A model generated the notes under the pieces. The model worked only from the letters and a program-made list of their open reading frames with translations. It was not told where the DNA came from and made no database searches. Shown in pieces: positions 7,298 through 29,973 of a stretch of DNA of 64,000 bases. Every line of letters begins with the position of its first letter. The stretch's first letter is position 1. This DNA is from a virus. Taxonomy: Duplodnaviria > Heunggongvirae > Uroviricota > Caudoviricetes. The translations under genes and the position numbers were made by a program. Where the stretch lies: positions 9,756 through 73,755 of IMG/VR virus record IMGVR_UViG_3300028888_000043; one strand, written 5' to 3'.

Positions 7298-7859
7298 ACT
7301 CACATTCACCTATGCATGTATGGGTGCCGGAAAGACAACCCAGATGCTCACTATGTTTGACCAGTACAAAAGAAGGAAGAAGAAACCTCTCATTGTCAAA
7401 CCCTGTATGGATGTAAGGGAGGGAACATTTGCTGGTTGGGGAATCACCAAGTCAAGGATCACCAAGAATGAAGAACCCACTTACTATTACCAGGATTTGA
7501 AATCTGAATTGAACAACCTTGATTTTGGTGTATTGTTTGTGGATGAAGCTCAGTTCCTGTCAAGGGAAGATGTACTTACTCTCTGCGAAGTCTGCGATGA
7601 CAAATGTATAGATGTCTTTTGTTTTGGATTGAAGACAGATGTAACTGGAAATCTTTTTGAAGGCAGCAAGCATCTCCTGGCATTGGCAGATGTCATCAAT
7701 GAAATCCAGACACCTTGTGAGATTGAAGGTTGTAATTGTAATGCTGTCTGTCATATCAGATACATTGATGGTATCAGGGAGACAGATGGAAAATCTGTTG
7801 CTATTGAGACAGGGAATGTCACATATAAGTCTGTTTGCAGGAAACACTGGAGATTATGA
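7290..7859 (+). CDS. tdk: thymidine kinase
   Basis: P-loop CMGAGKTTQML, VDEAQF, Zn-ribbon Cys cluster near C-terminus; start chosen at MGKLTFTYA (ATG 7290), alternative upstream ATG 7200. Confidence 0.85.
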   Translation: MGKLTFTYACMGAGKTTQMLTMFDQYKRRKKKPLIVKPCMDVREGTFAGWGITKSRITKNEEPTYYYQDLKSELNNLDFGVLFVDEAQFLSREDVLTLCEVCDDKCIDVFCFGLKTDVTGNLFEGSKHLLALADVINEIQTPCEIEGCNCNAVCHIRYIDGIRETDGKSVAIETGNVTYKSVCRKHWRL

Positions 7860-11615: not shown

Positions 11616-11921
11616 ATGCTTGCAGTTATATTATTTCCAGTCAAACCGGAGAACAAGGATTATCCATTCTACAAGTCTCCGAAGAAAGTATTGGAGATTG
11701 AAGATGATGAAGCATTCTCCTATACAACTGGGACAAAGGGTGTCTATTATTGGAAACACCACATTGACAATATGGATGGGTTGAGTGACAGAGAGATTAT
11801 AGAACACTACAACTCCATATCAAGTCCAAAGGTACAAATCCTATCCAAGAAGACAGGAAAAGGATATTCAACCGAAGAGAAGAATTATTTTGTAAGGATT
11901 ATAAGATATGCTCACAATTAA
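11616..11921 (+). CDS. hypothetical protein (101 aa)
   Basis: ORF. Confidence 0.4.
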   Translation: MLAVILFPVKPENKDYPFYKSPKKVLEIEDDEAFSYTTGTKGVYYWKHHIDNMDGLSDREIIEHYNSISSPKVQILSKKTGKGYSTEEKNYFVRIIRYAHN

Positions 11922-12507
11922 AGACATCAAAAATGAAGCAGGGATTTACAACATTCCCGCTGATATTCATATCAACAAAAATATCTGTTTTGATTTCCGT
12001 CTATTTGATGCGCTTGTCAATCCTGATTATAAAAATAACCATGATTACAGGTATGATTTTGATATTTATCTTCCCAAATATGGTATCAATCTTCAGAGAC
12101 CTTATGTGTGGGAGGCATGTCAGCAGCAGGAATTTATTTTCTCTATTCTCCTTGAAAAACCGATTGATTCTGTTATCATCAATCAGCACAACAATGATGT
12201 AAACCGTAGTAACACCATCAACCGGGTTATTGATGGGAAGCAGAGGCTCTTGACTATTCGGAAATTCGCTCTCAATGAATTCCCTATCTTCATTGATGGG
12301 AAGGAATATTATTATAAGGATTTCTCAAAAGAACTCCAGCGCTTCTTCCAGTCAAGGGTGAATTATATGACAGGTACTGTCTATTATTCATATGATGACA
12401 TCCCTCTTGATGATGATATGCTCATCCGTCTTTTCAACTTCTACAATTTTGCCGGTACTCCCCAGGCAGAGGAACATAAGATTAAACTTCAAAAACTGTT
12501 AAAGTAA
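11908..12507 (+). CDS. DUF262 (GmrSD N-terminal / ParB-like nuclease superfamily) domain protein
   Basis: LQRPYVWE...IDGKQRLLTI matches the QR-x-Y-x-W and DGQQRL signature motifs. Confidence 0.5.
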   Translation: MLTIKDIKNEAGIYNIPADIHINKNICFDFRLFDALVNPDYKNNHDYRYDFDIYLPKYGINLQRPYVWEACQQQEFIFSILLEKPIDSVIINQHNNDVNRSNTINRVIDGKQRLLTIRKFALNEFPIFIDGKEYYYKDFSKELQRFFQSRVNYMTGTVYYSYDDIPLDDDMLIRLFNFYNFAGTPQAEEHKIKLQKLLK

Positions 12508-14667: not shown

Positions 14668-15402
14668 ATGAAATTTCTGATTCAGACAATCAATAAGCAG
14701 ATTGTCCATGATTTCTCCTGGGAACTCTCCAGATGTGAAGAGTATCACAAGTGGATTGAGGATCCTATCACTCTCCGTTATCATGAGGGAATGGACTTTG
14801 AGCAAATCAAACACCCTGATACATATGTACCCGTCGGGTCTGTGGAGTTTGTGTCAGCATACCTGAACAGGTTTTATCCGGAAGCAAAGGAGGCATTGAA
14901 ACCTCTCAATGTCCCTAAATGTCTGTATCCTTATACCGGCAGAACTATCTCCAATGTGAGAACACCAGAAGATTTCATCCCCTTCTGTAACTATTCGCTT
15001 GTGTTTGCAAAGGATATGAACAAGATTAAAAGTGAAAGAAGCGGGTTCATTGGTCTTCCAACATTTGAACGAGTGAAGGACTGTCAGGTATCATCTGTCG
15101 TTGACTTCCAGTCTGAATGGAGAGTATTTGTATTCCAGGATGGTTTATTGGACTGTCGGTGTTACAGTGGAGACTGTTTTGTCATTCCAAGTAAAGACAA
15201 AATCAAAGAGATGATGAACACATTCAGGACAGAAGGAACTCCTGTTGCATACACACTGGATGTAGGAGTCACCACCAATGGTGAGACTGTAGTTATCGAG
15301 TGTCACCGTTTCTATTCTTGTGGCCTCTATGGATTCAGTCAGCAGAATATTTATCCTGCGATGCTTTCGCAGACCTGGTACCAAATGAGAAATATGAAAT
15401 GA
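14668..15402 (+). CDS. ATP-grasp-like protein (tentative)
   Basis: SEWRVFVFQDGLL and TLDVGV..GETVVIECH resemble the RimK-type ATP-grasp E-RVFV and LEVN regions. Confidence 0.3.
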   Translation: MKFLIQTINKQIVHDFSWELSRCEEYHKWIEDPITLRYHEGMDFEQIKHPDTYVPVGSVEFVSAYLNRFYPEAKEALKPLNVPKCLYPYTGRTISNVRTPEDFIPFCNYSLVFAKDMNKIKSERSGFIGLPTFERVKDCQVSSVVDFQSEWRVFVFQDGLLDCRCYSGDCFVIPSKDKIKEMMNTFRTEGTPVAYTLDVGVTTNGETVVIECHRFYSCGLYGFSQQNIYPAMLSQTWYQMRNMK

Positions 15403-15403
15403 T

Positions 15404-16084
15404 ATGAAGCACTATGATTCCATACCAAGGATCCAGGATGATGGGACACTGAAAGGGGATTATGTCTGGGGGTTCAATAAACTTGATGGACAGAACTTCT
15501 GTGTAACATACAACTGCCGGAAGAAGACCTGGGGTCCATATGGTTCAAGGACTGTCACTGTTGATGAGAACAGCGAGCAGTTTGGTGACACTGTAAAGTG
15601 GTTCAATTGCTCCCACTATCCAGATGTCCTGGAAAAGATTGTCAGGGAACACTCCAGTAAGAAAGAGGTTTTCAATGGTGTAGATGAGGTAACCTTCTTC
15701 TTTGAATGGTATGGTGCAAACTCTTTTGCAGGGAAACATCAGGAAGGTGATGAAATGCATCTGGCACTCATTGATGTGTTCTTGAAAAAGAAAGGTTATA
15801 TGGAGCCTGCTGACTATTACTCCCTATTCTGCCTGAATGATGACATTGAGACACCTGACTTGATTTGCAGGGGGGACTTGGATTCTGAAATTATATCCAT
15901 CATCCAGGAGAATGACTGGACACAACCAGATGCTGAACTTCCAAATGTCAAGGAAGGTGTAGTCTTCAAGAGGAGTACACTTATGAAAGGACAGAGAAGA
16001 CCTTCTGTCAAGGTGAAGACCAAGTGGTGGTTGGACAAACTCCACTCTATGTATAGTGAAGAAGAATGTAAAAAGTTGGAGTAA
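15404..16084 (+). CDS. Rnl2-family RNA ligase nucleotidyltransferase domain (226 aa)
   Basis: motif I FNKLDGQN (KxDG), motif IV EGVVFK, motif V KVKTK about 20 aa later; spacing matches T4 Rnl2. Confidence 0.6.
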   Translation: MKHYDSIPRIQDDGTLKGDYVWGFNKLDGQNFCVTYNCRKKTWGPYGSRTVTVDENSEQFGDTVKWFNCSHYPDVLEKIVREHSSKKEVFNGVDEVTFFFEWYGANSFAGKHQEGDEMHLALIDVFLKKKGYMEPADYYSLFCLNDDIETPDLICRGDLDSEIISIIQENDWTQPDAELPNVKEGVVFKRSTLMKGQRRPSVKVKTKWWLDKLHSMYSEEECKKLE

Positions 16085-16086
16085 TA

Positions 16087-16313
16087 TGGATACAAAATTT
16101 ATTGATGATACTCTTGCTGAATCACAAAATAGACAAAAAAATTATCTTATAAAGATTAGCAAAATCAAAGATGCAATAAAGACACTTGAAGAAGAAGGTA
16201 TTGCTCTACCTGAATCTGTATATGGAACACTTGCATACTATCAGTCAGAGTATGACAATGAATATAGACAATATAGTATTTTACTTAAATTGAATAAATA
16301 TGAAGACTGTTGA
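16087..16313 (+). CDS. hypothetical protein (75 aa)
   Basis: ATG right after upstream stop. Confidence 0.4.
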
Positions 16314-16437
16314 ACTTAAAGTAATCATCAATGTACCTGATGATTATGATTGTGCATATCCATTTGATACATTGGTGGATTCTAATTACAGGGATGATAT
16401 GGAAGTCATTGATGTTGAACTAATTGATGAATATTGA
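16299..16437 (+). CDS. acidic mini-protein (45 aa)
   Basis: MKTVELKVIINVPDDYDCAYPFD...; below cutoff. Confidence 0.25.
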
Positions 16438-16438
16438 T

Positions 16439-16678
16439 ATGGATTACTATATGGCAACTGGTAAATATGAGACACTAACCCGTGTCGTGATTGAACACTA
16501 TGACAAGAGATATATTTTAGAAACTCCTTATAGTGATTCCAATTTACTGGAAGATTTGTTATCTTTAACTTACAATGCGCTTCTTGCCGCTGGTTACCAT
16601 CAAGATACAATCAATCAAGCTCTTGTGGAGATGGCAGAAGAAAAGGGATATAAGGAAGATGAAGAAGAAGAATCCTGA
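16439..16678 (+). CDS. hypothetical protein (79 aa)
   Basis: start trimmed to ATG after upstream stop. Confidence 0.4.
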   Translation: MDYYMATGKYETLTRVVIEHYDKRYILETPYSDSNLLEDLLSLTYNALLAAGYHQDTINQALVEMAEEKGYKEDEEEES

Positions 16679-16922
16679 ATACACTGACATCTGTGACTGT
16701 AATGGTGAACTCATTCCATATGGTGCCCTGCTGGATTTTATCTGGTGGGCATACAATGGTAGTGAGGTGGAACTCCATTATGTGGCCAAGATAAGGAAGA
16801 GAAAATCCGGTGACATCTTTGAATTCATCAAGGATGACAGGGGAAGAGACTGTCACTTCACACATAGATTGACATCCCTGAACTGGTGTAGTGATGACCT
16901 TGAACTGATAAAGGAGAATTGA
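16659..16922 (+). CDS. hypothetical protein (87 aa, CxC motif)
   Basis: start trimmed to MKKKNPEYTDICDC. Confidence 0.4.
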   Translation: MKKKNPEYTDICDCNGELIPYGALLDFIWWAYNGSEVELHYVAKIRKRKSGDIFEFIKDDRGRDCHFTHRLTSLNWCSDDLELIKEN

Positions 16923-16923
16923 T

Positions 16924-17076
16924 ATGGACAAGATTCTTGAAGAACTACATAAGAAATATTGCTGTGAATGCGGATCGCAGAGATGTACAGGTGAGGATGA
17001 ATGGTTGAATGGGTGTCCACATTACAGAGAATTGAAAGAAAGATATGGGAAACTGGAGAAAAATAATCTTCCTTGA
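16924..17076 (+). CDS. Cys-rich mini-protein (50 aa; CCECGSQRC...C)
   Basis: below cutoff; overlaps start of next gene. Confidence 0.25.
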   Translation: MDKILEELHKKYCCECGSQRCTGEDEWLNGCPHYRELKERYGKLEKNNLP

Positions 17077-17569
17077 CATTGACGGGGTGATGGCATCCAT
17101 ACCTTACCTGTGTAAAGGGAAAGGATATATAGACCCGAAGAAATGTAAACTCCTCAACACCCTTGAAGACATAGGTGTTGAGATTGTTATATCATCTTCC
17201 TGGGGATACGACAATGGCCGCACGGAGAAATCCCTGCGAGACTGCGGTCTCACCATACCTATCATTGGTTACACACAACATCTCCATTTCAACTGGGAAT
17301 GGGCATGCCGAGGTAATGAGATTGAAAAATGGATTCAGGACAACTTCAAGGGGATGGGAACTAAGTGGGGTTATGATGATGAAGGAGTATCATATCACAG
17401 ACACCATCCTCATAATACCGACATTGATTATGAGTATGTCATCTTTGATGATGGGGAAGATATGCTTCTTGGTCAGAAGGATAACTTCATTAAGATACAT
17501 GATTATCAAGGTATAACAAAAAGAGATATTAACAAAGCAAGAAAAATATTGACAAGGGATGAAAAGTAG
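17045..17569 (+). CDS. HAD-superfamily phosphatase (polynucleotide 3'-phosphatase-like)
   Basis: N-terminal FLDIDGV (DxDG nucleophile motif), ISSSWG, FDDGEDM. Confidence 0.55.
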   Translation: MGNWRKIIFLDIDGVMASIPYLCKGKGYIDPKKCKLLNTLEDIGVEIVISSSWGYDNGRTEKSLRDCGLTIPIIGYTQHLHFNWEWACRGNEIEKWIQDNFKGMGTKWGYDDEGVSYHRHHPHNTDIDYEYVIFDDGEDMLLGQKDNFIKIHDYQGITKRDINKARKILTRDEK

Positions 17570-17834
17570 AAGTGAAAATGAGATTAAAATATGGCTCATC
17601 ACAAGGTCTTGGTACAAGAAATATATGTACAACCTGATGAAAGAAAACCCTGATGAGGCAGATAACTACCTTGATGGGAAGATGGGTCCATACACTCTGT
17701 CCAGTGCCTTTACATACAGGAACACACCTGAGGGTGTTGAGTACTGGGGGAAGAAAGAAGAAAAGTTCCTTATCTGGTATTATCACCAGAAGAAAGAGGT
17801 ATTCCGTTGCAGATGGTTCACAATTCAAATCTAA
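17559..17834 (+). CDS. hypothetical protein (91 aa)
   Basis: ORF. Confidence 0.4.
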   Translation: MKSRSENEIKIWLITRSWYKKYMYNLMKENPDEADNYLDGKMGPYTLSSAFTYRNTPEGVEYWGKKEEKFLIWYYHQKKEVFRCRWFTIQI

Positions 17835-17839
17835 ATATT

Positions 17840-18232
17840 ATGGCACACAAGAAATTTATGAAGCACCTTGGTGATAGGTATGAAGTCCTCACTGGCTGGC
17901 AGACAGCCAATCTGATTATTAAAACTATGAAGGACAGAGCTCCATTGACATCTAATCAGGAAAGAGTCTTGAAAGAAGAATTTGGTGATTCTGGTATTAA
18001 AGGAAACCTGGATATGCCATTCCTTGCCTATTCCTGGAAAGAGGAAAAGAAAGCAGGTAAATTCATATGGAGACTCACCACCCCCATATTCTTCCTGTAT
18101 GTTTTCATTGTTATGATTACTGTATTACCTCTCAAATGGATTTTAACAGGTTACTATGGATTGTCCAGGGACAGTAAGTTTGGACAGTTCAATGTCAACT
18201 GGTATCAGAAAATATACAATGAACGCTGGTAA
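17840..18232 (+). CDS. membrane protein (1 TM)
   Basis: hydrophobic helix PIFFLYVFIVMITVLPLKWIL. Confidence 0.45.
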   Translation: MAHKKFMKHLGDRYEVLTGWQTANLIIKTMKDRAPLTSNQERVLKEEFGDSGIKGNLDMPFLAYSWKEEKKAGKFIWRLTTPIFFLYVFIVMITVLPLKWILTGYYGLSRDSKFGQFNVNWYQKIYNERW

Positions 18233-18286
18233 TTTTTGGAAATGTGAAAATAATATATTATATTTGTATTGAAAATGTGATTGTAT

Positions 18287-19084
18287 ATGGAAACTGAAAA
18301 GAAAGAAGAAAAGCAGGTAATCACCCCGAGTCAGTATTTTGAACATCTGAAAGGTGCAAAGAATGAGATTACCTCGGAAGACCTGAAGGAGTCCATCAAT
18401 GCCTTTGTCATCCTGGCAGACAAATATGAAAAGACCGGTCAGACTCTGGCCACGGATAAGCTGATCTACCTGTCAGAGGTTATGAAGAAGGAAGAGCAGC
18501 TCATCAGTATGGGTATCAACACCTTCATCTATAAGGATGTTATCGAGGACTACATCACCAAGGTGGCGGACAAGACTGTCAAGATCGTTGAACTGTCTCG
18601 TTATATGAGAGAGTTGCCGGATGAGATTGTGGAGACCGTCGCCAAGGTCAAGGGTATCTTCGATGAACTCTATGTGGTTTTTACCGACTACACCGGTAAG
18701 GAAGAAAGAAAGGTGGAGAAGGAGAGACGGGACAAGGACCCCATCCTCTTTGGCGTGTTCAAGAACAATGCTGTGGTTGCTGACCGCTTCTATTTCCTTG
18801 GTGACTGGGTTGATGAGTACTGCGACCTCACCTTGGACAAACTCATTGACCAATATAAGGACAAGGAAGGATTCTCTCCGCTTATCACTACCAGCATCCC
18901 AAAGAATGTAGATGAACTGGTTGAACTGATGAAGACCTACAAGGTGGATGAGAAGAAACAGAAGGTTGTGTTAAGTGGTGACAATTTTATCTCATCTACA
19001 GAAATCCATGCCTTCAATGTGGATCCTCAAGTGAAACCGAAGAAGAGTTTCTTTGACAAGATTCGCAGTATCCTCAAGAAGTAA
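18287..19084 (+). CDS. hypothetical protein (266 aa)
   Basis: ATG start (track start 18281 is TTG); -7-like TATATTTGTATTG upstream. Confidence 0.5.
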   Translation: METEKKEEKQVITPSQYFEHLKGAKNEITSEDLKESINAFVILADKYEKTGQTLATDKLIYLSEVMKKEEQLISMGINTFIYKDVIEDYITKVADKTVKIVELSRYMRELPDEIVETVAKVKGIFDELYVVFTDYTGKEERKVEKERRDKDPILFGVFKNNAVVADRFYFLGDWVDEYCDLTLDKLIDQYKDKEGFSPLITTSIPKNVDELVELMKTYKVDEKKQKVVLSGDNFISSTEIHAFNVDPQVKPKKSFFDKIRSILKK

Positions 19085-19500
19085 TGTTACCTCCTAACAT
19101 AGACCTGACTGAAAACAGGGACTTCAATGAAGGAAATCTCTGGTTTGACATCAATTTTGGTGATGAACTGGAGGCCTTATTTGTAGATGAATATATGACA
19201 TCTGACCAGTATGAAACTCTCAAGAGATATGAGAGCATCTTTGGAAAAAGGAGGCACAAGAATCAGGCGAGAGAACTACTTGGAGATTTGTATGATATGC
19301 CTTTTTCTGTTCCGGTAAACTGGAACAGAACCTGTGTCAGATGTGGGAAACCTTTACTTCCCTGGAACAATCTCGGTGGAATATGCCGAGAATGTGATGG
19401 AGAACTGAACCAGTCATATGGATATGGAGGTTTCCCTTGGGCAGTTTACAATACTCCAAATGACCCCAGGTCGGCTATGGACATTTTCACATTAAGATAA
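19084..19500 (+). CDS. hypothetical protein with C-terminal CxxC..CxxC
   Basis: TAATG overlap; CVRCGKP...CRECDG. Confidence 0.45.
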   Translation: MLPPNIDLTENRDFNEGNLWFDINFGDELEALFVDEYMTSDQYETLKRYESIFGKRRHKNQARELLGDLYDMPFSVPVNWNRTCVRCGKPLLPWNNLGGICRECDGELNQSYGYGGFPWAVYNTPNDPRSAMDIFTLR

Positions 19501-19501
19501 T

Positions 19502-19699
19502 ATGAGTATCTGGGCAGACATGCACCGTAGAAGTAACGGTGTACAGGAAAGAAAGGAGAACAAGATAAAGGAATGGGATGATGAAATCACTTGGCCTCAT
19601 GTACTGAAAGTATATAGCAAAACCATTTCCGGTAATATTGTATCAGTACAACCAATGTCCCCACCAATAGGTAAGTTATTTTATACAGATTTCAAATGA
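19502..19699 (+). CDS. MSIW-leader family member 1 (65 aa)
   Basis: N-terminus MSIWADMHRRSNGVQERKE. Confidence 0.6.
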   Translation: MSIWADMHRRSNGVQERKENKIKEWDDEITWPHVLKVYSKTISGNIVSVQPMSPPIGKLFYTDFK

Positions 19700-19863
19700 G
19701 TATCTGGGCAGACATACACAGAAGAAGTAATGGTCTTCAGGAAAGGAGAGAAGATATCCTTGCGAGAATAAAGTATCAGGAATATCTTTCATACTTGAAA
19801 AGTCCACAAAAATTTATGGATGAATATGTAGTTATTTTTCCTCCACATTCTAACAAAGAATAA
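19696..19863 (+). CDS. MSIW-leader family member 2 (55 aa)
   Basis: MSIWADIHRRSNGLQERRED...; ATGA overlap; below ORF-track cutoff. Confidence 0.45.
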   Translation: MSIWADIHRRSNGLQERREDILARIKYQEYLSYLKSPQKFMDEYVVIFPPHSNKE

Positions 19864-19864
19864 T

Positions 19865-20257
19865 ATGAGTATCTGGAGAGACATACATAAAAGGAGTAAT
19901 GGTCTAACACAAAGAAAGGAAGACCAGATTGATAAGAGTCCTTATGCAACAAGGGCAGATGTTGAATCCATCATACAACCAATCACATATGCTGGAATTG
20001 TAAACTCACAAAGTCAATTACCACAGTCGGCAGCAGTAGGGGCAATCTTCTATGCCCAGGGTACTGGTGAATTTTATATCTACACCAATAATGGTTTTGA
20101 GTTAATCTCATCTGTAACTACTTGCGACAATAATTTGGATTATATTGATGACTCCATTGGTCAACCTATTAAACCATTTGAACCCACTATCGTATCTGTT
20201 GAAACAAAAAATGGAATTTATTATGAAACTATCTTTAGAGAACATAACTATCAATGA
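19865..20257 (+). CDS. MSIW-leader family member 3 (130 aa)
   Basis: MSIWRDIHKRSNGLTQRKED. Confidence 0.6.
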   Translation: MSIWRDIHKRSNGLTQRKEDQIDKSPYATRADVESIIQPITYAGIVNSQSQLPQSAAVGAIFYAQGTGEFYIYTNNGFELISSVTTCDNNLDYIDDSIGQPIKPFEPTIVSVETKNGIYYETIFREHNYQ

Positions 20258-21503
20258 CCACAAGATATTTGACCAGGAGGGAAAGTATAGGGGTGAAATC
20301 CTGTATGAGTACATCCGCGGATCCCATCTCTATGGTACCAATGTTGCCACTTCCGATGAGGATAGGGGAGGTATATACATTATGCCCAATGACAATCTCC
20401 TCGGTCTTGGTTTTGATTATCAGAACGAAATCAAGGATGCCAGTAATGACAAGTGCATCTGGGAACTTGGTCGGTTCCTGGAACTGGCGCTCTCTTCCAA
20501 CCCTACGGTCCTGGAAGCCCTATTTGTTCCTGATGACAAGGTTATCTATGAGCACCCTGTCATCAAGGATATCCGTTCGTACCGTGACGAGTTTGTGACC
20601 AAGAAGTGCTTCGCTCCATTCGGAGGATATGCAGAACAACAGATCAAAAAAGCCCAGGGTCAGAACAAGAAGATTCACTGGGATATGGAAGATGTTCAGA
20701 GAAAGAACCCTCTTGACTTCTGCTACACCTTCAAGAATCAAGGAAGTCAGAACATCCAGGACTTCCTGAAGGAGAACAAACTCGATCAGAGATACTGTGG
20801 TCTCGTGAACATCCCCAAGATGAAGGATGTCTATGGTGTGTACTATGACTTCGCTGCTTACTTCCACTTCGAGAACATTGACTGGTATGATGTGAGCTTC
20901 CAATCTGGTGGTGTCAAAGCACCATATAACAAATTCATCAAAGATGGTCAGTGGAGTGATGAGATTTCACTCCGTATCAGTCAGCATGCCTTCTATGGTT
21001 ATGCGGGCATCGTCAACCCGGAGGATCCCACCAAGTCCAATGAGGTAAGACTCTCTTCCATCCCAAAGGGTGAACACCCCATCTGCTTTATGGCCTACAA
21101 CTCCGATGGTTATGCTCATCACTGCAAGAAGTACAAGGAGTATGATGAGTGGAGACAGAAGAGGAACAAGGCCAGATATGAGTCCAATATGGATGGTGAG
21201 AAGTCTGGTGACCCTGATATGAAGTATGACTGCAAGAATATGATGCACTGCTTCCGTCTGATGTCGATGGCGAAGGAGATTGCTGAAGGTAAGGGTATCC
21301 TTCTTGACAGGACAAACATAGACAGGGAATTCCTCCTGGATGTAAGAAACAGGAAGTTTGGTTATTCAACCCTCAGCGAACTGATGCTCAACCTGAAAGA
21401 CAAGATGGACGAGGCAATCAAGAACTCCACCATCAAGGAGGAGATTGACCGGAAGATGGTCAATGAGATTCTGTTGAATGCAAGAAAACAATTTAATCAA
21501 TAA
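20223..21503 (+). CDS. predicted nucleotidyltransferase (COG3541 / RNA-repair-associated Pol-beta-like family)
   Basis: RGSHLYGTNVATSDEDRGGIYI is the minimal NTase signature GS...D.D; start uncertain (ATG 20211 or 20223; track start 20145 is TTG). Confidence 0.5.
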   Translation: MKLSLENITINDHKIFDQEGKYRGEILYEYIRGSHLYGTNVATSDEDRGGIYIMPNDNLLGLGFDYQNEIKDASNDKCIWELGRFLELALSSNPTVLEALFVPDDKVIYEHPVIKDIRSYRDEFVTKKCFAPFGGYAEQQIKKAQGQNKKIHWDMEDVQRKNPLDFCYTFKNQGSQNIQDFLKENKLDQRYCGLVNIPKMKDVYGVYYDFAAYFHFENIDWYDVSFQSGGVKAPYNKFIKDGQWSDEISLRISQHAFYGYAGIVNPEDPTKSNEVRLSSIPKGEHPICFMAYNSDGYAHHCKKYKEYDEWRQKRNKARYESNMDGEKSGDPDMKYDCKNMMHCFRLMSMAKEIAEGKGILLDRTNIDREFLLDVRNRKFGYSTLSELMLNLKDKMDEAIKNSTIKEEIDRKMVNEILLNARKQFNQ

Positions 21504-21508
21504 AAACT

Positions 21509-21784
21509 ATGTCAGCATTAACTATCATTTGTATTATTCTCAGTTCTCTTTTCATTATCATTGATCTCATCAAGGGTGAAATTGGATGGGTGTTAATATG
21601 GATTATCATCCTTGGTCTTAACATCTTCACAGGTATCAATGAGATTAAAAAAAAAGAAAAGAAACTCAATGGAGATGTAGAAACCTATGTCATCCATGAT
21701 GTAAAGGGGTTCAAGGCAGACACCACGACCATCATTAATGGTACTGATACCACTAAGACTTATATACTAACATATTGGAAATAA
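21509..21784 (+). CDS. small membrane protein (2 TM)
   Basis: hydrophobic N-terminus LTIICIILSSLFIIIDL..WVLIWIIILGLNIF. Confidence 0.45.
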   Translation: MSALTIICIILSSLFIIIDLIKGEIGWVLIWIIILGLNIFTGINEIKKKEKKLNGDVETYVIHDVKGFKADTTTIINGTDTTKTYILTYWK

Positions 21785-21796
21785 TTTTTTAAAGAT

Positions 21797-22255
21797 ATGA
21801 CAGAAGATAACAAAATCAAATTGCTTAAGAGTGTAAAACTTCTTAAATCCCTTCATTTCAAACCAGAAAATATTATGGTCACAGGTAGTGTTGCCCTGGA
21901 TGCACATGGTATCCTCCCTTCCAATAGAAAATCACATGATGTGGACTTCATCATCAAGATGAACAATGACACCTGGGGTTGTCTCAAACTGATTGAAGCA
22001 ATGGTGAGACCTGATGATGAACCATTACAGGAATATGAATCCAAAATCAGGAAAGAGATAGTCTTTTTGACAATGAATGATGGTACAACCATCAACATCT
22101 GGAGATACAATGCCAGTTATGATTGGTCAGACATTAAGGATGCGGACACCGGTGTCTTTGTGGCGACTGTGGATCACATCATCAAAGCCAAGAAGAAATA
22201 TGGTCGGGCAAAAGACCTGAAAGACATCAATGACATTGTGAAAGGATTGTTATGA
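21797..22255 (+). CDS. minimal nucleotidyltransferase (Lnu/KNTase-like fold)
   Basis: TGSVALDAHGI...SHDVDFII is the GS-x9-13-D-x-D NTase motif; C-terminal pattern like lincosamide NTases. Confidence 0.45.
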   Translation: MTEDNKIKLLKSVKLLKSLHFKPENIMVTGSVALDAHGILPSNRKSHDVDFIIKMNNDTWGCLKLIEAMVRPDDEPLQEYESKIRKEIVFLTMNDGTTINIWRYNASYDWSDIKDADTGVFVATVDHIIKAKKKYGRAKDLKDINDIVKGLL

Positions 22256-22482
22256 AATTCAAATTCAATGGCGGAAATGGTGCAATCCTCTGTGGAAGAT
22301 GTGGAGTCATCCTCAAATCAGGAAGACAAATCCCGGAGTATGTGTGGGAGGCGGTCAGGAATGGTACTGTTGATAAACTACCGGATATGTACTGTGAAGA
22401 CAACTGTGAGAGAAGCATGAAAGTACTTGCAGAGTGTGACAGGATTATGAACAAGATAAAAGAAGAAAACAAAAATAAATGA
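22252..22482 (+). CDS. small Cys-containing protein (76 aa)
   Basis: CGRCG...CEDNCER. Confidence 0.35.
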   Translation: MKFKFNGGNGAILCGRCGVILKSGRQIPEYVWEAVRNGTVDKLPDMYCEDNCERSMKVLAECDRIMNKIKEENKNK

Positions 22483-23048
22483 AGCATTTAATAAGTGAAT
22501 CCTTATTCGCCGGTATCCTAATTGGAGTTGGTGCATTTGGATACCTTTCCCTTGGTGGGATTCAGGGTGCAATCATCTTTACATTCGGTCTGGTTGGTGT
22601 TGTACTCACCAGGACTCTCCTCTACACTGGTCAGGCAGGTATCCTCAATAATATTTGGGATGTGACCAAAATCTGGTTCTTCAACATTCTCGCCTGTGTT
22701 GTGATTGGATTGATGGCATTGTATCTTGGTGGAGAACCGGTTGAGAGGGCAAGAACTGTTGTAGAAGGAAGACTTGCCGTTGAACCAATCAAAGTGTTCC
22801 TCAAAGCTCTCGGATGTGGACTCATCATAGACATTGCCTGTTTCACTTATAGGGAATCAGGAAGTATCATTCCTGTACTGTTTGGTGTCCCTCTCTTCAT
22901 CCTATGTGGGTTTTATCACTCCATTGCCGATGTGGTTTATATAGTGGCGGCAGGAAACTGGGATAAAGGATTACTCTGGTATTATCCTCTGATTGTCTTG
23001 GGAAACTATGCTGGTTGTAATGTAAGAAGAATTGTATTAAAAAGATAA
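22479..23048 (+). CDS. polytopic membrane protein (about 6 TM), possible small-solute transporter
   Basis: hydrophobic throughout; no family assignable by eye. Confidence 0.5.
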   Translation: MKHLISESLFAGILIGVGAFGYLSLGGIQGAIIFTFGLVGVVLTRTLLYTGQAGILNNIWDVTKIWFFNILACVVIGLMALYLGGEPVERARTVVEGRLAVEPIKVFLKALGCGLIIDIACFTYRESGSIIPVLFGVPLFILCGFYHSIADVVYIVAAGNWDKGLLWYYPLIVLGNYAGCNVRRIVLKR

Positions 23049-23052
23049 AGTT

Positions 23053-23865
23053 ATGTATTTCAAAACATTAAAGGATAAATGTGAATTTTATCGTTCGCTC
23101 ACAGACTACAAGCTGATGCCGAACAGTTATGTCCTTGCTATGGTGGATGGTCACTGTTTCAGCAGGATGATCAAGAACAAGTTTGACAAGCCATTTGATG
23201 ATATGTTCATCAATATGATGAATGAGACTGCCAAGTATCTATGTGAAAACATACAGGGTGCCAAGTTTGCTTATACACAGTCTGATGAGATCAGTATCCT
23301 CATCACGGACTTTGACACACCAATGACTGATTCATTCTTCAGTTTCAGACTCTGCAAGATGCAGTCTCTCATTGCTGCGATGGCGACTGCGAAATTCAAC
23401 CAGATGTATGCAAAATTGGCAGATGACTATAAGGGTTTCGGTCTCAAGAAGTTTGATATGAAAGAATACCCGACTTGTACCTTTGACTGCAAGGTCTGGA
23501 CTGTTCCCAATGCCAATGATGCCTATGCCTGGTTCCTGTACAGACAGACCGACTGCATCAAGAACTCCAAGGCCCAGACTGCACAGACATATATCCCTCA
23601 CAAAGACCTGATTGGACTCACTGCTGATGAGATGATAGTCAAGTTGAAGGATGAGAATGGCATTGACTGGAATACATTTGAGAATGGAAAGAAATATGGT
23701 CGTGTCATCATGAAGGTTGAGACCAATATGGAGAAAGACCTTCCGAATGGACAGCACATTGAGTTTGTCAGGAATGTGTGGACTCCTGTGGATGCAGTGG
23801 ATCTGAAAGATGACAATGAATGGTTGAGACAATTAATCCCAGGATATAATGAACAAACAAGTTGA
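23053..23865 (+). CDS. Thg1-like protein (tRNA-His guanylyltransferase / 3'-5' polymerase family)
   Basis: YVLAMVDGHCFSRMIKN..FDKPFDDMFINMMNETA...AYTQSDEISILI parallels Thg1 VVRIDGRNFH..FEKPND..AYGQSDEYSFV. Confidence 0.5.
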   Translation: MYFKTLKDKCEFYRSLTDYKLMPNSYVLAMVDGHCFSRMIKNKFDKPFDDMFINMMNETAKYLCENIQGAKFAYTQSDEISILITDFDTPMTDSFFSFRLCKMQSLIAAMATAKFNQMYAKLADDYKGFGLKKFDMKEYPTCTFDCKVWTVPNANDAYAWFLYRQTDCIKNSKAQTAQTYIPHKDLIGLTADEMIVKLKDENGIDWNTFENGKKYGRVIMKVETNMEKDLPNGQHIEFVRNVWTPVDAVDLKDDNEWLRQLIPGYNEQTS

Positions 23866-24037
23866 TCTGGAACCTCCAATAAGAGAAGCAGTCTTACAAT
23901 TATTGAAGGATAAACTTTCAATCAGTACTGATATTGATTGGGAATATGATACAAAAATACTGACCACAAGACTTTTTTTTGATGGGAAGGAAATAAGCAG
24001 AGACCAGGTTATACTTTGTCATGATGATGATTTTTAA
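23849..24037 (+). CDS. hypothetical protein (62 aa)
   Basis: ORF. Confidence 0.3.
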   Translation: MNKQVDLEPPIREAVLQLLKDKLSISTDIDWEYDTKILTTRLFFDGKEISRDQVILCHDDDF

Positions 24038-24040
24038 GAT

Positions 24041-24445
24041 ATGATTATAGCTATAGATTTTGACGGGACTTGCGTGAAGCATGCCTATCCCAAGATTGGT
24101 GAGGACATTGGAGCCATACCGGTACTTAAAAAAATGGTTAAGGATGGTCACCAGTTGGTATTGAACACAATGAGATCGGGTGATCTCCTTGATGAAGCAG
24201 TCAAATGGTTTGAGGATAACAGTATAAAACTATCAGGTGTGAACCACACACCAGGTCAATCCACCTGGACTACATCACCAAAGATTTATGCACAAGTGTA
24301 CATTGATGATGCCGCCCTTGGTTGCCCAACAGTTATGGATGAACAGGGTAGAATCTTTGTGGATTGGAGGATTGTTGCCAAGGTATTCGGATATGATTAT
24401 GATAAACTAATCAATGATGGAATCAGACCTGTTGAAAAGCAGTAA
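24041..24445 (+). CDS. HAD-like phosphatase (small)
   Basis: IAIDFDGT nucleophile motif, C-terminal YIDD. Confidence 0.5.
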   Translation: MIIAIDFDGTCVKHAYPKIGEDIGAIPVLKKMVKDGHQLVLNTMRSGDLLDEAVKWFEDNSIKLSGVNHTPGQSTWTTSPKIYAQVYIDDAALGCPTVMDEQGRIFVDWRIVAKVFGYDYDKLINDGIRPVEKQ

Positions 24446-24565
24446 TAAAAGAACTGCACAGATATTGATGTCTCAAATTAATGGTGAGATTGAATACATT
24501 GAAGAGTATCTTTCAAAATTAAAAATGAAAGTATCTGAATTAGAAACAATTATAAATGAGTTATA

Positions 24566-24742
24566 ATGGATCCAAAAGACATTGTAATTGGTAAAAAGGT
24601 TTATTATCACCCCATCATTGGCGGTCCTGAAAAGAAAGAAGTGACCATCACAAGTGAGGTTTTTGAAATCTGTGGCACATCTTGTTGTATGGTGGATTCT
24701 GTTTCAGGATGTGTTGCTATTGAAGCATTAACGGAAATTTAA
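24566..24742 (+). CDS. small Cys-containing protein (58 aa)
   Basis: MDPKDIVIGKKVYYHPIIGG...; preceded by a 32-aa ORF at 24468-24566. Confidence 0.25.
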   Translation: MDPKDIVIGKKVYYHPIIGGPEKKEVTITSEVFEICGTSCCMVDSVSGCVAIEALTEI

Positions 24743-24743
24743 G

Positions 24744-25400
24744 ATGGAAATAAAAACTAATATTATGGAACTTGGAACAAACAAACAATGTGATTCAATA
24801 TGGAACGAGATTGATCCTTTAAATAACACTGACATCAGGTTATTTGGTATCTGTCTCCTTCCCCATGTCCCGGAATATTTCTTTCATATTCCTGCCAGTT
24901 CATCTGGTAAGTATCACCCGGTTGGTGATCTTGGAGAGGGTGGTCTGGTCAGGCATTCCATCGCTGTCAAAAGGATGCTCACACATATCCTGGAACTGAA
25001 CGGGTACTATGAATTCACAGACAGACAGAAGGAACTCCTTCAATTGGCGGCACTGTTCCATGATTGTATGAAGTCCGGCACCCAGGAGGACTATGAAAAG
25101 AATCCACACACAAAATTCCTCCATCCTATCCTGGCAGCCAACTTCATCATGTACTATGCCTGTATGTATGAGTTTCCATATGAAGATGCTGTGTTTATGG
25201 CATCTGCCATCGCCTCCCATATGGGACAATGGAACACAAGTAAGCATGAAAGCGGATTGCTTCCTTTGCCCAAAGAACCTCACCAGAAGGTTCTCCATCT
25301 GGCAGACTATCTTGCTTCAAGGCAGGACATCAATATTGTCATTGAGGAGGAACAGGAAATCAAAGATGAAACAGATAAGGTAGAAATTGTAAAAGAATAA
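24744..25400 (+). CDS. HD-domain phosphohydrolase
   Basis: SGKYHP...GGLVRHS...AALFHDCMKS...LAD (H, HD, D motifs). Confidence 0.6.
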   Translation: MEIKTNIMELGTNKQCDSIWNEIDPLNNTDIRLFGICLLPHVPEYFFHIPASSSGKYHPVGDLGEGGLVRHSIAVKRMLTHILELNGYYEFTDRQKELLQLAALFHDCMKSGTQEDYEKNPHTKFLHPILAANFIMYYACMYEFPYEDAVFMASAIASHMGQWNTSKHESGLLPLPKEPHQKVLHLADYLASRQDINIVIEEEQEIKDETDKVEIVKE

Positions 25401-28679: not shown

Positions 28680-29543
28680 ATGATTATTCCTCCCATCAAA
28701 ATACAGGGAAAGAAAACCAAACTTGTTCCCAAGATAATGGAGATTGCCAACAATCTCCTGGACAATCATAAGGATATTGACACCTGGGTTGAACCATTCC
28801 TGGGTTCTGGAGTTGTTGCCTTCAACTGTCCGACCAGGATAAAGAAAGTGATAGTGAATGACATCAATCCTCACATCATCAAGTTCTACAAGAGCATAGC
28901 AGATGGTGAGATAACATCACAGAAAATCCATGATGTCTTTGAGGAACACAACAGGAGACTCATCAATGATGGTGGTCTGTACTACACGGAAATAAAAGAC
29001 AGGTTCAACCAGACTTTTGACACAATGGACTTCCTCTTCCTCACCAGAACTGGATTCAATGGGGTGATGAGGTTCAATGGTTCCGGAAAATGGAATGTCC
29101 CTTTCTGCAAGCTCAATGACAGACTCTCCAAAACGGTCATAGATGACCTAAAGAAGACCGTAGATGAGCTTTCACAACTCTTCCTGACCAAGGAGTTCAC
29201 TTTCTACAACAAGTCATTTGAGGAGGTTTTAGAGGCATCTCCTGCCAATTCTATTTTCTACTGTGATCCTCCTTATTATGGACTCCAAGTCCAGTACTTC
29301 AAGGGATGGGGAAAGGAAGATGAGATAAAACTAAATCAGATGCTGAAAGACAAGGTGTTCATCTACTCCACCTGGCTCAATGACAGTCACAGGGATAACC
29401 CTATGATAAATGAATACTGGGGAGACTATATGATAGAGTCAAAGCAGCACAAATATAATGTAGCGGAAAAGTCAAGTGAACGGGCACAAGTCCAGGAAGG
29501 TCTCATCTATCCTGGTGTTCCAAATGAATATGCTCTGTTTTAA
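28680..29543 (+). CDS. dam: Dam-family N6-adenine DNA methyltransferase
   Basis: IQGKK...EPFLGSGVV (motif I), FYCDPPY (motif IV DPPY). Confidence 0.8.
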   Translation: MIIPPIKIQGKKTKLVPKIMEIANNLLDNHKDIDTWVEPFLGSGVVAFNCPTRIKKVIVNDINPHIIKFYKSIADGEITSQKIHDVFEEHNRRLINDGGLYYTEIKDRFNQTFDTMDFLFLTRTGFNGVMRFNGSGKWNVPFCKLNDRLSKTVIDDLKKTVDELSQLFLTKEFTFYNKSFEEVLEASPANSIFYCDPPYYGLQVQYFKGWGKEDEIKLNQMLKDKVFIYSTWLNDSHRDNPMINEYWGDYMIESKQHKYNVAEKSSERAQVQEGLIYPGVPNEYALF

Positions 29544-29544
29544 T

Positions 29545-29596
29545 CTGCGATTGCGATCTGCGAAGGTGGAGATTGAAGAAATCTTCACCTTTTTTC
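29545..29596 (+). terminator. TGCGA tandem repeat (CTGCGATTGCGATCTGCGAA) plus terminator hairpin
   Basis: GGTGGAGATT-gaaga-AATCTTCACC (one G-U pair) then T6. Confidence 0.7.
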
Positions 29597-29597
29597 A

Positions 29598-29642
29598 TTT
29601 TTATTTGGATATGTCATTTTTTTGTTGTATCTTTGTATCAGA
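29598..29642 (+). promoter_or_regulatory. class-A consensus promoter
   Basis: TTATTTGG...TTGTATCTTTGTATCAG. Confidence 0.55.
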
Positions 29643-29655
29643 AATAAATGAGATT

Positions 29656-29973
29656 ATGAACTACAAGATTTATCAACTTGACATCGACAATATCAATGTT
29701 CTTAGTGACCACAGACTCTTTGAGTCCTGGGATATGCTAAACAGAACATGTGGGTTCAGCAAGCACTGCTACAAGAAAGTCTATGAAGGTGAAGTCACTG
29801 CAAACACAATCGTCGGAGCGCTTGATTCCCTTTTCTGGAAATTCAATCTCAATCACCCTGAAGACTTCCATGGTCACTCCCTGTCTGTATCTGATGTGGT
29901 TGAATTGGATGGAGTCTGGTATTATTGTGACTCCATTGGCTGGGTGAACATCAAAACAGAAGAAAAACTATAA
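29656..29973 (+). CDS. hypothetical protein (105 aa)
   Basis: start trimmed to first ATG after promoter (track ORF extends back over dam). Confidence 0.45.
   Translation: MNYKIYQLDIDNINVLSDHRLFESWDMLNRTCGFSKHCYKKVYEGEVTANTIVGALDSLFWKFNLNHPEDFHGHSLSVSDVVELDGVWYYCDSIGWVNIKTEEKL

Follow-up and report, generated by a model that had tools for sequence, protein, structure and literature searches.

Gene content of the locus

The region lies in a 64-kb window of phage DNA (the whole stretch of 64,000 nucleotides that was analysed), itself a section of a metagenomic contig (410,934 bp) whose phage has the Prevotella Lak megaphages as its nearest published relatives. A first-pass annotation, made from the sequence alone, had described positions 14668–25400 as a dense cluster of RNA-end healing and sealing enzymes. 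The enzymes it named exist: all lie on the + strand with catalytic motifs intact, their start positions proved right, and the Nudix hydrolase and calcineurin-type phosphoesterase that it placed outside the cluster are present. The features considered here are as follows.

2688–3272, +, Nudix hydrolase, outside the cluster (PF00293, 8.3e-17)
5391–5831, +, possible PTH2-like peptidyl-tRNA hydrolase, 146 aa, outside the cluster (weak assignment)
14668–15402, +, R2K.2-clade ATP-grasp protein, 244 aa (Pfam R2K_2, 7.5e-22; R2K_3, 9.3e-15)
15404–16084, +, ATP-dependent RNA ligase, 226 aa (PF09414 RNA_ligase, 5.2e-9)
17045–17569, +, HAD_SAK_2 phosphatase, 174 aa (Pfam HAD_SAK_2, 5.8e-18; 66 bits, cutoff 27.5)
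18281–19084, +, conserved gene (phrog_10081, 6.2e-72; no Pfam match)
19084–19500, +, conserved Cys-rich gene (no Pfam match)
20223–21503, +, RlaP, RNA-ligase-associated Pol-beta nucleotidyltransferase, 426 aa (PF10127, 2.4e-20; 73.7 bits, cutoff 23)
21797–22255, +, RlaP-associated mini-nucleotidyltransferase, 152 aa
22252–22482, +, conserved 76-aa Cys-rich protein, between the mini-nucleotidyltransferase and the Thg1-like protein
22479–23048, +, formate/nitrite-transporter (FNT)-like membrane protein, 189 aa (PF01226, 8.2e-15)
23053–23865, +, Thg1-like protein of the bacterial TLP type, 270 aa (Pfam Thg1, 9.5e-26)
24041–24445, +, cap-less BT0820-like HAD phosphatase, 134 aa (PDB 2obb, 4.9e-16)
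24744–25400, +, stand-alone HD-domain phosphohydrolase, 218 aa (PF01966, 3.2e-10)
60692–61504, +, calcineurin-like (Metallophos) phosphoesterase, outside the cluster (PF00149, 2.4e-8)

The cluster is embedded in 27 co-directional open reading frames with intergenic gaps of at most 54 nt. The region is 92% coding and uses the standard code, with all three stop codons in use. Thymidine kinase, Nudix and further nucleotide-metabolism genes share the array with the cluster. No 5′-polynucleotide kinase, CCA-adding enzyme, KptA or tRNA gene was found in the 64-kb window. The possible peptidyl-tRNA hydrolase scored 1.5e-4 against Pfam PTH2 (22.4 bits, under the cutoff of 23) and matched phrog_3668 ('hydrolase', 1.3e-23), and a PDB sequence search gave no match.

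Enzymes of the cluster

The ligase (phrog_548 'RNA ligase', 3e-17, profile positions 3–241 of 341) contains a single domain, the Rnl2-like nucleotidyltransferase domain, and has no C-terminal or OB domain. Its motifs K26LDG, FEW100, E184GVVFK and K203VK are invariant across 23 homologs; 498 homologs were found, with lengths of 224–227 aa among the 120 matches listed. In a Foldseek search with an AF2 model (pLDDT 86), the best match was T4 Rnl2 (2hvr, 7.8e-7), and the model aligned with the Rnl2 N-terminal domain (1s68) at TM scores of 0.59/0.58. Ranks 1–20 were all T4 Rnl2, T4 Rnl1, TbREL1 or NgrRnl, with DNA ligases appearing from rank 21. As modelled, the protein therefore groups with RNA ligases ahead of DNA ligases; the Rnl2-type assignment made at first pass is upheld, and the placement among DNA ligases that had been named beforehand as evidence against it was not seen. 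T4 Rnl2 needs its C-terminal domain for the RNA-adenylylation step, and since the window's ligase has no such domain, its competence to seal ends by itself is uncertain.

The ATP-grasp gene, with its stop codon 1 nt ahead of the ligase start codon, had also been counted as an RNA enzyme, a reading that we do not retain. Adjacency to the ligase is its sole tie to RNA repair and, across 41 ligase loci of related phages, recurs only in L016 (53% identity). The protein belongs to the R2K.2 clade, for which protein modification has been predicted (PMC4431377), and is itself predicted to be a peptide/protein ligase; a jumbo-phage review likewise sees R2K as modifying host proteins and does not count it as a repair component (Viruses 13:63).

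The COG3541-type nucleotidyltransferase is RlaP (phrog_388, 4.7e-47), which confirms its earlier assignment to an RNA-repair family, and its catalytic motifs GS33 and DED45 are intact. RlaP proteins put 1–2 NMPs onto damaged RNA 3′-OH ends and return aminoacylation to over-trimmed tRNA in vitro (PMC12776372), making the phage protein a candidate restorer of 3′-end nucleotides. The mini-nucleotidyltransferase carries N-terminal GS30 and DVD48 motifs and a conserved C-terminal K / R.KD; its nearest fold is MenT1, followed by LnuA and ANT(2''). We regard it as a partner of RlaP, because the two genes adjoin in three phages and form a single fused protein in P0380 and P0385.

The Thg1-like protein (phrog_4717, 4e-56) belongs, as first proposed, to the Thg1-like 3′-5′ polymerases: its best PDB match is the Bacillus thuringiensis TLP (4kgk, 6.6e-33, versus 5e-6 for eukaryotic Thg1), motifs DG32 and SDE77 are intact, and the CHINNLYN of Candida Thg1 is replaced by CIKNSKAQ. 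It is a candidate template-dependent 3′-5′ polymerase that would rebuild tRNA 5′ ends.

The two HAD phosphatases, both previously placed in the repair set, fared differently. The first, with a DIDG motif at residue 11, belongs to HAD_SAK_2, a family defined by and named for RNA-repair proteins, and is a candidate 3′-phosphate or end-healing enzyme; its gene is syntenic in L011, L012 and L016 (67–71% identity). The second (phrog_1238; DFDG6 motif) matches the NCBIfam BT0820 family at 2.2e-25 but with 89.6 bits, below the cutoff of 165, and follows the TLP gene in L011 and L012 only. The HD protein (phrog_5889, 3.9e-48; HD106 motif kept) has 942 homologs, which among the 120 matches listed are mostly of ~200–220 aa, several on contigs longer than 140 kb; its family profile gave only non-significant matches in the PDB (YhaM, 0.031; PDE10A, 0.04). 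Searches with the BT0820-like HAD, the HD protein and the R2K ATP-grasp gave no RNA-specific signal, so that an RNA role is not supported for these three of the eight activities first grouped as an RNA-repair set.

Gene order in related phages

The ligase, HAD_SAK_2, RlaP and Thg1 genes span 8.5 kb of a 411-kb genome, for which random placement gives ~3.5e-5; the clustering of these four RNA-repair-defined families exceeds chance. Two further megaphage contigs keep the block HAD_SAK–RlaP–mini-nucleotidyltransferase–TLP–HAD–HD in synteny, at 54–86% identity. The genes at 18281–19084 and 19084–19500, which lie inside the block, keep their order in L011, L012 and L016, and the 76-aa Cys-rich protein, which has no Pfam or PHROG match, has counterparts 68–77% identical at the equal position in L011 and L012. 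The FNT-like gene, missing from the first-pass list, was not found in the L011 and L012 syntenic blocks; it represents an insertion specific to the lineage and probably lies outside the repair set.

RlaP, ligase and TLP genes occur together within 4.1 kb in L013, with RlaP ~0.5 kb upstream of the ligase, and TLP lies less than 10 kb from the ligase in L013, L018, L025, L045 and L048. RlaP or TLP is found within 10 kb of the ligase at 6–7 of 41 loci versus ~2 expected, a modest enrichment counted over related, non-independent loci. Physical linkage of the core genes is not required, since ligase, RlaP and TLP are 45–55 kb from one another in Lak-A1 and the ligase is 51 kb away from the block in one close relative; where it occurs, common ancestry may be part of the reason. 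The ligase's neighbours vary freely from relative to relative and include KptA/Tpt1, HD-Pnk, a CCA-adding enzyme, TROVE, SmpB, NADAR and Metallophos. Metallophos families recur among these neighbours; the protein encoded at 60692 is 56–57% identical to one lying 4.9 kb upstream of the L007 ligase. Some relatives have sets as rich or richer, including two ligases, and such sets have already been described in jumbo phages, so the combination is not unusually rich as had been claimed.

A candidate tRNA-end repair set

We consider it reasonably probable that the region holds the genes by which a Lak-related megaphage of ~411 kb repairs RNA ends; they are probably expressed together with the rest of the one long co-directional array. 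Four families score above curated cut-offs with all catalytic motifs intact; the ligase model lies nearer RNA than DNA ligases, and BtTLP, a tRNA 5′-end-repair enzyme, is the TLP's closest match. The clustering, the block synteny, the L013 grouping, the RlaP/mini-nucleotidyltransferase fusions and the RNA-repair genes beside relatives' ligases all point the same way. Of the earlier interpretation, the gene set stands, with the ligase, RlaP, the TLP and one HAD; the richness and three of the activities do not.

Taking every step from family biochemistry, a host nuclease or toxin would cut or trim tRNA in infection. Cleaning of the 3′ end would fall to phosphoesterases, among which the HAD_SAK_2 phosphatase is the best-supported candidate and the HD protein, the BT0820-like HAD and the distant Metallophos are possible contributors. 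RlaP and its partner would replace nucleotides lost from the 3′-OH end, the TLP would restore lost 5′-end nucleotides with the opposite strand as template, and the domain-minimal ligase would seal 3′-OH/5′-phosphate nicks. The gene for a 5′-kinase may lie in another part of the genome, as with HD-Pnk in relatives; alternatively, the damage being countered may already bear 5′-phosphate ends. We place the small open reading frames, the R2K ATP-grasp and the FNT-like protein among the neighbours of this pathway's genes.

A phage toolkit for mending cut tRNAs is real but of a kind already described: publications on jumbo phages, Lak phages and Thg1 neighbourhoods set out equivalent logic. The jumbo-phage sets (Iyer, Anantharaman, Krishnan, Burroughs & Aravind 2021, Viruses 13:63, building on Burroughs & Aravind 2016) share its component families and proposed logic, with Rnl-type ligases mirrored by RlaP, Thg1 in sporadic occurrence, and PTH2, Nudix and phosphoesterases. 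The window differs in its physical clustering, its 226-aa ligase and its dedicated mini-nucleotidyltransferase, and in having no kinase or CCA-adding enzyme nearby. Identity to Lak proteins is 58% for the ligase, 53% for the TLP and 44% for RlaP (Devoto et al. 2019), and the Lak authors had already pointed to a T4-like RNA ligase as a tRNA-repair enzyme, alongside a G-adding enzyme for tRNA-His, CCA addition and the release of peptidyl-tRNA (bioRxiv 10.1101/356790). The three genes dispersed in Lak-A1 are clustered here, on a contig of ~411 kb. Lak phages recode a stop codon, whereas the genes of this region follow the standard code.

T4, which answers PrrC with Pnkp, Rnl1/Rnl2 and NrdC.11, has a ligase, a HAD-type phosphatase and an RlaP homolog in common with the window (NrdC.11 is RlaP; PMC12776372), and T4 Rnl2 is the closest fold to the window's ligase. 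The window adds a TLP and a second nucleotidyltransferase but has neither a 5′-kinase domain nor the Rnl2 C-terminal domain; without a 5′-polynucleotide kinase, the T4-type healing pathway invoked at first pass is incomplete there. A counter-defence role is inferred by analogy with the T4 paradigm. Bacterial RtcB/RtcA-RlaP and Thg1-Pnk-ligase neighbourhoods likewise place RlaP or Thg1-family genes beside an RNA ligase (PMC12776372; PMC2904730), though the window's ligase is ATP-dependent and Rnl2-like, not RtcB, and polynucleotide kinase, the most persistent companion of bacterial Thg1, is not in the window.

Routine maturation or quality control of the phage's own tRNAs (5′-end fidelity, 3′-end completion), or general RNA upkeep in a very long infection, with no response to host nucleases, is an unlikely explanation. 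Lak-type megaphages encode many tRNAs, Lak-like relatives carry the ligase 1–2 kb from tRNA genes and 7–9 kb from tRNA arrays, and Anantharaman et al. did not decide between tRNA-His maturation and repair as the role of viral Thg1. The window, however, holds no tRNA gene, RlaP prefers damaged RNA, and bacterial tRNA maturation needs no ligase. Nor is this type of TLP known to be specific for tRNA-His.

Somewhat less likely again, the RNA-acting core may be small (ligase, RlaP with the mini-nucleotidyltransferase, TLP), the rest being unrelated early auxiliary genes that are co-linear by chance; the HAD, HD and Nudix proteins would then act on nucleotide pools as phosphohydrolases and R2K would modify host proteins, and there would be no coherent multi-step module. 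Four repair-defined families within 8.5 kb, HAD_SAK_2 among them, are very unlikely by chance and argue against this, even though the BT0820-like HAD and the HD protein have no RNA-linked family assignment and adjoin the TLP only in close relatives, R2K.2 proteins are predicted to join peptides to proteins, nucleotide-metabolism genes populate the array, and ligase surroundings change freely.

Very improbably, the mini-nucleotidyltransferase, possibly with RlaP, is offensive, adding nucleotides to host tRNA 3′-CCA ends and shutting off translation as MenT/AbiEii (DUF1814) toxins do: MenT1 is its best structural match and it has the N-terminal GS...DxD and C-terminal K / R.KD arrangement, but LnuA, TM1012 and ANT(2'') score nearly equally, the AbiEii Pfam model has no significant match to it and touches 5 of 141 relatives weakly, no antitoxin-like partner was found, and the protein is smaller than those toxins, its adjacency or fusion to a repair enzyme arguing instead for cooperation on damaged ends.

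A co-directional gene run in a megaphage genome

Between positions 14668 and 25913 lie 27 ORFs, all on the + strand and separated by intergenic gaps of ≤54 nt. The genes of interest, with one weak match from elsewhere in the window, are as follows.

5391, +: PTH2-like gene (weak), outside the cluster
14668, +: R2K_2 ATP-grasp protein (7.5e-22)
15404, +: RNA ligase, PF09414 (5.2e-9; phrog_548, 3e-17)
17045, +: HAD_SAK_2 protein (5.8e-18)
20223, +: RlaP, an RNA-ligase-associated Pol-beta nucleotidyltransferase (2.4e-20; phrog_388, 4.7e-47)
21797-22255, +: mini-nucleotidyltransferase, 152 aa (no significant Pfam match; AF2 fold of Pol-beta type)
22479-23048, +: formate/nitrite-transporter-like (FNT-like) membrane protein, 189 aa (PF01226, 8.2e-15)
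23053, +: Thg1 family, Thg1-like protein (TLP) (9.5e-26; phrog_4717, 4e-56)
24041, +: BT0820-like HAD protein (PDB 2obb, 4.9e-16)
24744-25400, +: HD hydrolase (3.2e-10)

All eight activities that the first-pass annotation had assigned to this region were recovered in profile searches, complemented by an AF2 model for the 152-aa protein, and catalytic motifs are intact in every named protein. The Nudix (2688) and Metallophos (60692) proteins likewise lie where they had been placed. The FNT-like gene, located between the mini-nucleotidyltransferase and TLP genes, is absent from that earlier list, and it is missing from the syntenic blocks of two related loci, L011 and L012. The names RlaP and SAK reportedly go back to Burroughs and Aravind in 2016.

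The ligase protein, flanked by identical neighbours, occurs on JGI contig Ga0310697_10000001 (410,934 bp), of which the window covers approximately 9-73 kb. Protein identity to the Prevotella Lak megaphages, the closest published genomes, is 58% for the ligase, 53% for the TLP and 44% for RlaP; at the DNA level the cluster as a whole has no megablast match in 50,697 phage records. Under code 11, the standard code, coding density in the window is 92% and all three stop codons are used, which rules out an alternative-code artefact. A scan of 13.5-26.5 kb for sigma-70 promoters and terminators performed no better than on shuffled sequence.

A ligase family reduced to its nucleotidyltransferase domain

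The ligase scores 36.9 bits against PF09414 (cutoff 27), and its motifs K26LDG (motif I, with the adenylylated lysine), FEW100, E184GVVFK and K203VK (III, IV and V) are invariant across 23 homologs. When its AF2 model (pLDDT 86) was compared with the PDB using Foldseek, ranks 1-20 were all RNA ligases, including T4 Rnl2 (7.8e-7), T4 Rnl1, TbREL1 and NgrRnl; DNA ligases appeared first at rank 21 and capping enzymes were absent from the top 50, so the protein does not fall into the mRNA-capping or DNA-ligase clades and the earlier assignment to RNA ligases holds. Its predicted activity, judged from family biochemistry, is the sealing of 3'-OH/5'-phosphate RNA nicks. Searches of PDB sequences with the single ligase sequence and with a profile found no match.

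The Rnl2-specific C-terminal helical domain is absent, and the protein stops at residue 226. The phrog_548 alignment covers profile positions 3-241 of 341, and the model superimposes on the isolated Rnl2 N-domain (1s68) with TM scores of 0.59/0.58, against only 0.43 of target for full-length 2hvr. The ligase is thus an Rnl2-like nucleotidyltransferase domain only. Truncation as an artefact was ruled out, since the 120 homologs listed among 498 are likewise all 224-227 aa; contigs of 100-416 kb carry many of them. T4 Rnl2 requires its C-domain for the RNA-adenylylation step, and for this reason the domain-minimal family may depend on a partner protein to be fully active. No such partner was identified. 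The idea that a 75-aa ORF following the ligase gene could be the split-off C-domain of Rnl2 was rejected: the ORF matches no family and, in the relatives that have it, does not lie beside the ligase.

The commonest neighbour of the ligase in relatives, found directly downstream in 13 of 43 loci (including locus L028, 10776-12575), is a protein of ~525 aa with a PHA02142-type OB-fold domain at its N-terminus, followed by a middle part resembling a coiled coil. This neighbour might provide the nucleic-acid-binding domain missing from the minimal ligase; the window contains no homolog of it.

Enzymes predicted to clean and rebuild RNA ends

The TLP scores 90.7 bits against PF04446 (cutoff 29.2), which identifies a Thg1 palm domain, and its DG32 and SDE77 motifs, with the catalytic carboxylates, lie within conserved blocks of the alignment to the Bacillus thuringiensis TLP (BtTLP, 4kgk). 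The match to BtTLP (6.6e-33) is far stronger than those to eukaryotic Thg1 (5e-6 to 1e-5). At the place of Candida Thg1 RQVDCHINNLYN the phage protein has RQTDCIKNSKAQ, in which the tRNA-His recognition motif HINNLYN is replaced by IKNSKAQ. By sequence, then, it is to be classed as a bacterial-type TLP. In established TLP biochemistry, truncated 5' ends of tRNA are repaired in the 3'-5' direction on a template; together with the proximity to BtTLP and the lack of HINNLYN, this points to a predicted role in such repair rather than in tRNA-His-specific G-1 addition.

The assignment of RlaP is secure (PF10127, 73.7 bits, cutoff 23; Pol-beta GS33 and DED45 present), and a sequence search of the PDB gave no match. 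RlaPs from Pseudomonas add 1-2 NMPs to damaged RNA 3'-OH ends, through which over-trimmed tRNA regains aminoacylation, and T4 NrdC.11 has been identified as an RlaP (December 2025 preprint, PMC12776372). By analogy with the Pseudomonas enzymes, the only RlaPs for which the activity is known, the phage protein would add 1-2 NMPs to RNA 3'-OH ends. Just upstream of its gene, three tandem small ORFs (19502-19699, 19696-19863 and 19865-20257) share near-identical N-termini (MSIWAD/RD-xH-R/K-RSNG...RKE) and then diverge, and look like a local paralog expansion.

The mini-nucleotidyltransferase is the least certain member of the set. Its AF2 model (pLDDT 88.7) has the fold of a Pol-beta-type nucleotidyltransferase, with MenT1, LnuA and ANT(2'') as nearest folds, and as modelled this fold would fit acceptors of either kind, RNA or small molecule. 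An exhaustive profile search delimited a family of ~150-aa proteins comprising 238 clusters at 50% identity and no more, which match DUF6036, DUF7277 and AbiEii weakly; the profile matched no PDB sequence. Context is more telling than fold. Both here and in two related contigs the gene comes after RlaP, and the two domains are fused in two other proteins, P0380 (a single intact 647-aa ORF, at locus L136) and P0385. On the strength of this adjacency and fusion we call the protein RlaP-associated, and it probably shares its RNA-end substrates with RlaP. Between the RlaP and mini-nucleotidyltransferase genes lies a 91-aa ORF (21509-21784) with a hydrophobic N-terminal half, apparently comprising two transmembrane helices, which at the threshold used is seen in this phage only. 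At the matching place P0380 has a ~40-aa linker between its fused domains.

Candidates for a 3'-phosphatase or 2',3'-cyclic phosphodiesterase are the HAD_SAK_2, HD, BT0820-like HAD and Metallophos proteins. HAD_SAK_2 (PF18143, 66 bits, cutoff 27.5) carries the DxDG nucleophile motif as DIDG at residue 11. The BT0820-like HAD, at 89.6 bits against NF046079 (cutoff 165), is best described from its sequence as a homolog of 2obb and not an equivalog. Sequence searches of the PDB with the HAD_SAK_2, HD and PTH2-like proteins found no match, and the HD family profile gave non-significant matches only (YhaM, 0.031; PDE10A, 0.04). Near the N-terminus, the HD family alignment shows a motif that is invariant or nearly so, PASSSGKYHP...GEGGLVRH, resembling PAASSHHH...GLSYH of the 3'-5' exoribonuclease YhaM in that non-significant alignment. 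The YhaM-like PASSS..H motif is a possible hint of a role in RNA 3'-end trimming, a lead and not a result.

The R2K.2 ATP-grasp protein (PF18299, 78.2 bits, cutoff 26.2) belongs to a family predicted to join peptides to proteins (PMC4431377). Its gene stops 1 nt before the ligase start, a near-abutting junction found again in one other lineage only.

Gene neighbourhoods and the role of the region

The comparison took in 43 loci surrounding ligase homologs, together with 2 surrounding homologs of Thg1. The order HAD_SAK, two unknowns, RlaP, mini-nucleotidyltransferase, a 76-aa protein, TLP, HAD and HD is syntenic in two other megaphage contigs, at 54-86% identity and without the FNT-like gene; one of these has the ligase and R2K 12.7 kb upstream, much as here, and the other has the ligase 51 kb away. 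The BT0820-like HAD and HD genes lie beside the TLP in close relatives only. RlaP follows the ligase at a distance of 4.1 kb in this phage and lies ~0.5 kb upstream of it in L013, a related locus in which RlaP, ligase and TLP all fall inside 4.1 kb; the RlaP-ligase distance is also below 10 kb in L016, L017, L024 and L033. In Lak-A1 the ligase, RlaP and TLP are 45-55 kb apart. Other relatives flank the ligase with KptA/Tpt1, SmpB, TROVE, a second ligase, HD-Pnk (HD plus P-loop kinase), a CCA-adding enzyme, NADAR or Metallophos. The Thg1 neighbourhood in Bacillus phage TsarBomba and the RlaP neighbourhood in Tenacibaculum phage PTm1 were uninformative. The four families defined by RNA repair (ligase, HAD_SAK_2, RlaP and Thg1) fall within 8.5 kb of the 411-kb genome, with a chance probability of ~3.5e-5, and RlaP or TLP lies <10 kb from the ligase in 6-7 of 41 loci as against ~2 expected, a modest enrichment among non-independent loci. 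The picture is of a megaphage lineage whose RNA-repair genes form a large, shuffled pool and are often found near one another, and not of a fixed operon.

On balance we favour the view that the region encodes a toolkit for healing, rebuilding and sealing RNA ends. Cleaning of the ends would fall to HAD_SAK_2, and possibly also to the HD, BT0820-like HAD and Metallophos proteins; RlaP and its partner mini-nucleotidyltransferase would restore 3' nucleotides and the TLP 5' nucleotides; and the ligase would perform the final sealing. Use of this toolkit against host tRNA-targeting defences is something we infer from the T4 paradigm. The T4-type healing-and-sealing system pairs Pnkp with Rnl, whereas the window showed no counterpart of the 5'-OH polynucleotide kinase of T4: a scan of ~60 of its proteins turned up no P-loop polynucleotide kinase. 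Homologs of the relatives' HD-Pnk (HD-AAA_33), KptA, TROVE, SmpB and second ligase were also searched for in the window, and none was found. A CCA-adding enzyme (class II, PF01743, with PolyA_pol head and RNA-binding domain), present in relatives L007 and L009, is lacking from the window.

Among the alternatives, housekeeping of the phage's own tRNA pool would call on the same end-repair enzymes, and a search of the window for tRNA genes and Rfam families found none; we regard this reading as unlikely. Quite unlikely, in our judgement, is a small RNA core embedded among unrelated auxiliary genes. We hold equally doubtful a narrower form of the toolkit, in which RlaP, the MenT1-like mini-nucleotidyltransferase and the TLP would together rebuild both strands of the tRNA acceptor stem as a counter-defence. 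Working in two steps, like split CC- and A-adding enzymes, the two nucleotidyltransferases would re-add 3' nucleotides. Refilling of the 5' strand would be the task of the TLP, and removal of blocking phosphates that of the HAD/HD phosphoesterases. The targets would then be toxins directed not at the anticodon loop but at the 3' acceptor end of the tRNA, such as those acting by HEPN/HepT-type clipping, MenT-type extension or toxSAS pyrophosphorylation. An offensive, MenT-like role for the mini-nucleotidyltransferase is very improbable, and general family annotation recognised no antitoxin-like family among its neighbours.

The concept and almost all components of the toolkit are already published. 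Thg1-Pnk-ligase neighbourhoods and viral Thg1 have been described (PMC2904730), as have jumbo-phage RNA repair sets including RlaP, Thg1 and PTH2 (Iyer et al. 2021, Viruses 13:63), and a G-adding enzyme, CCA addition, peptidyl-tRNA release and RNA ligase were noted in Lak phages (bioRxiv 10.1101/356790). Set against these publications, only the pairing of RlaP with the mini-nucleotidyltransferase and the domain-minimal ligase family might be new. The main contribution is one more well-documented case, drawn from a Lak-like megaphage lineage that is uncultivated. Specialists may value the conserved family of ligases that consist of the Rnl2-like nucleotidyltransferase domain only. The ~150-aa nucleotidyltransferases beside or fused with RlaP point to two-enzyme 3'-end rebuilding, which lies beyond the scope of the first RlaP biochemistry, and the repeated co-location of a bacterial-type TLP with ligase and RlaP bears on the physiological role of TLPs.

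Accessory genes and tRNA genes of relatives

Elsewhere in the window, a 199-aa protein (11908-12507) matches only the N-terminal (DUF262) domain of restriction enzymes of the GmrSD type (1.7e-13), without the nuclease half. Two large proteins have BspA-type leucine-rich repeats, which are compatible with a Bacteroidota-associated phage. These and the auxiliary genes are listed here.

1604-2695: M42 aminopeptidase
7200-7859: thymidine kinase
28680-29543: Dam-type methyltransferase
29524-29973: YodL-like protein
32691-35072, +: BspA-type leucine-rich-repeat protein (PF13306, 5e-44)
43764-44588: sigma-70-like factor
47696-49195, -: BspA-type leucine-rich-repeat protein (PF13306, 2.5e-22)
53399-54010: FKBP-type peptidyl-prolyl isomerase

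Several Lak-like relatives carry a tRNA-Cys(GCA) gene ~1.0-2.9 kb downstream of the ligase (L034, 12899-12982; L036, 11394-11490; and L039, L040, L041, L049 and L052). These genes are 73-97 nt long, and at least 83 nt in all except L049. In the Rfam alignment the L036 tRNA has a ~24-nt insertion, with the stem gaacgg/ccguc, at the variable-arm position; the insertion forms a long variable arm like that of class II, unusual for tRNA-Cys, and is not an anticodon-loop intron. L035, L037, L042, L043 and L044 have a tRNA-Gln(CTG) gene 1.6 kb upstream of the ligase, and arrays of 5-6 tRNA genes are found 7-9 kb upstream of it in L037 and L042-L044.
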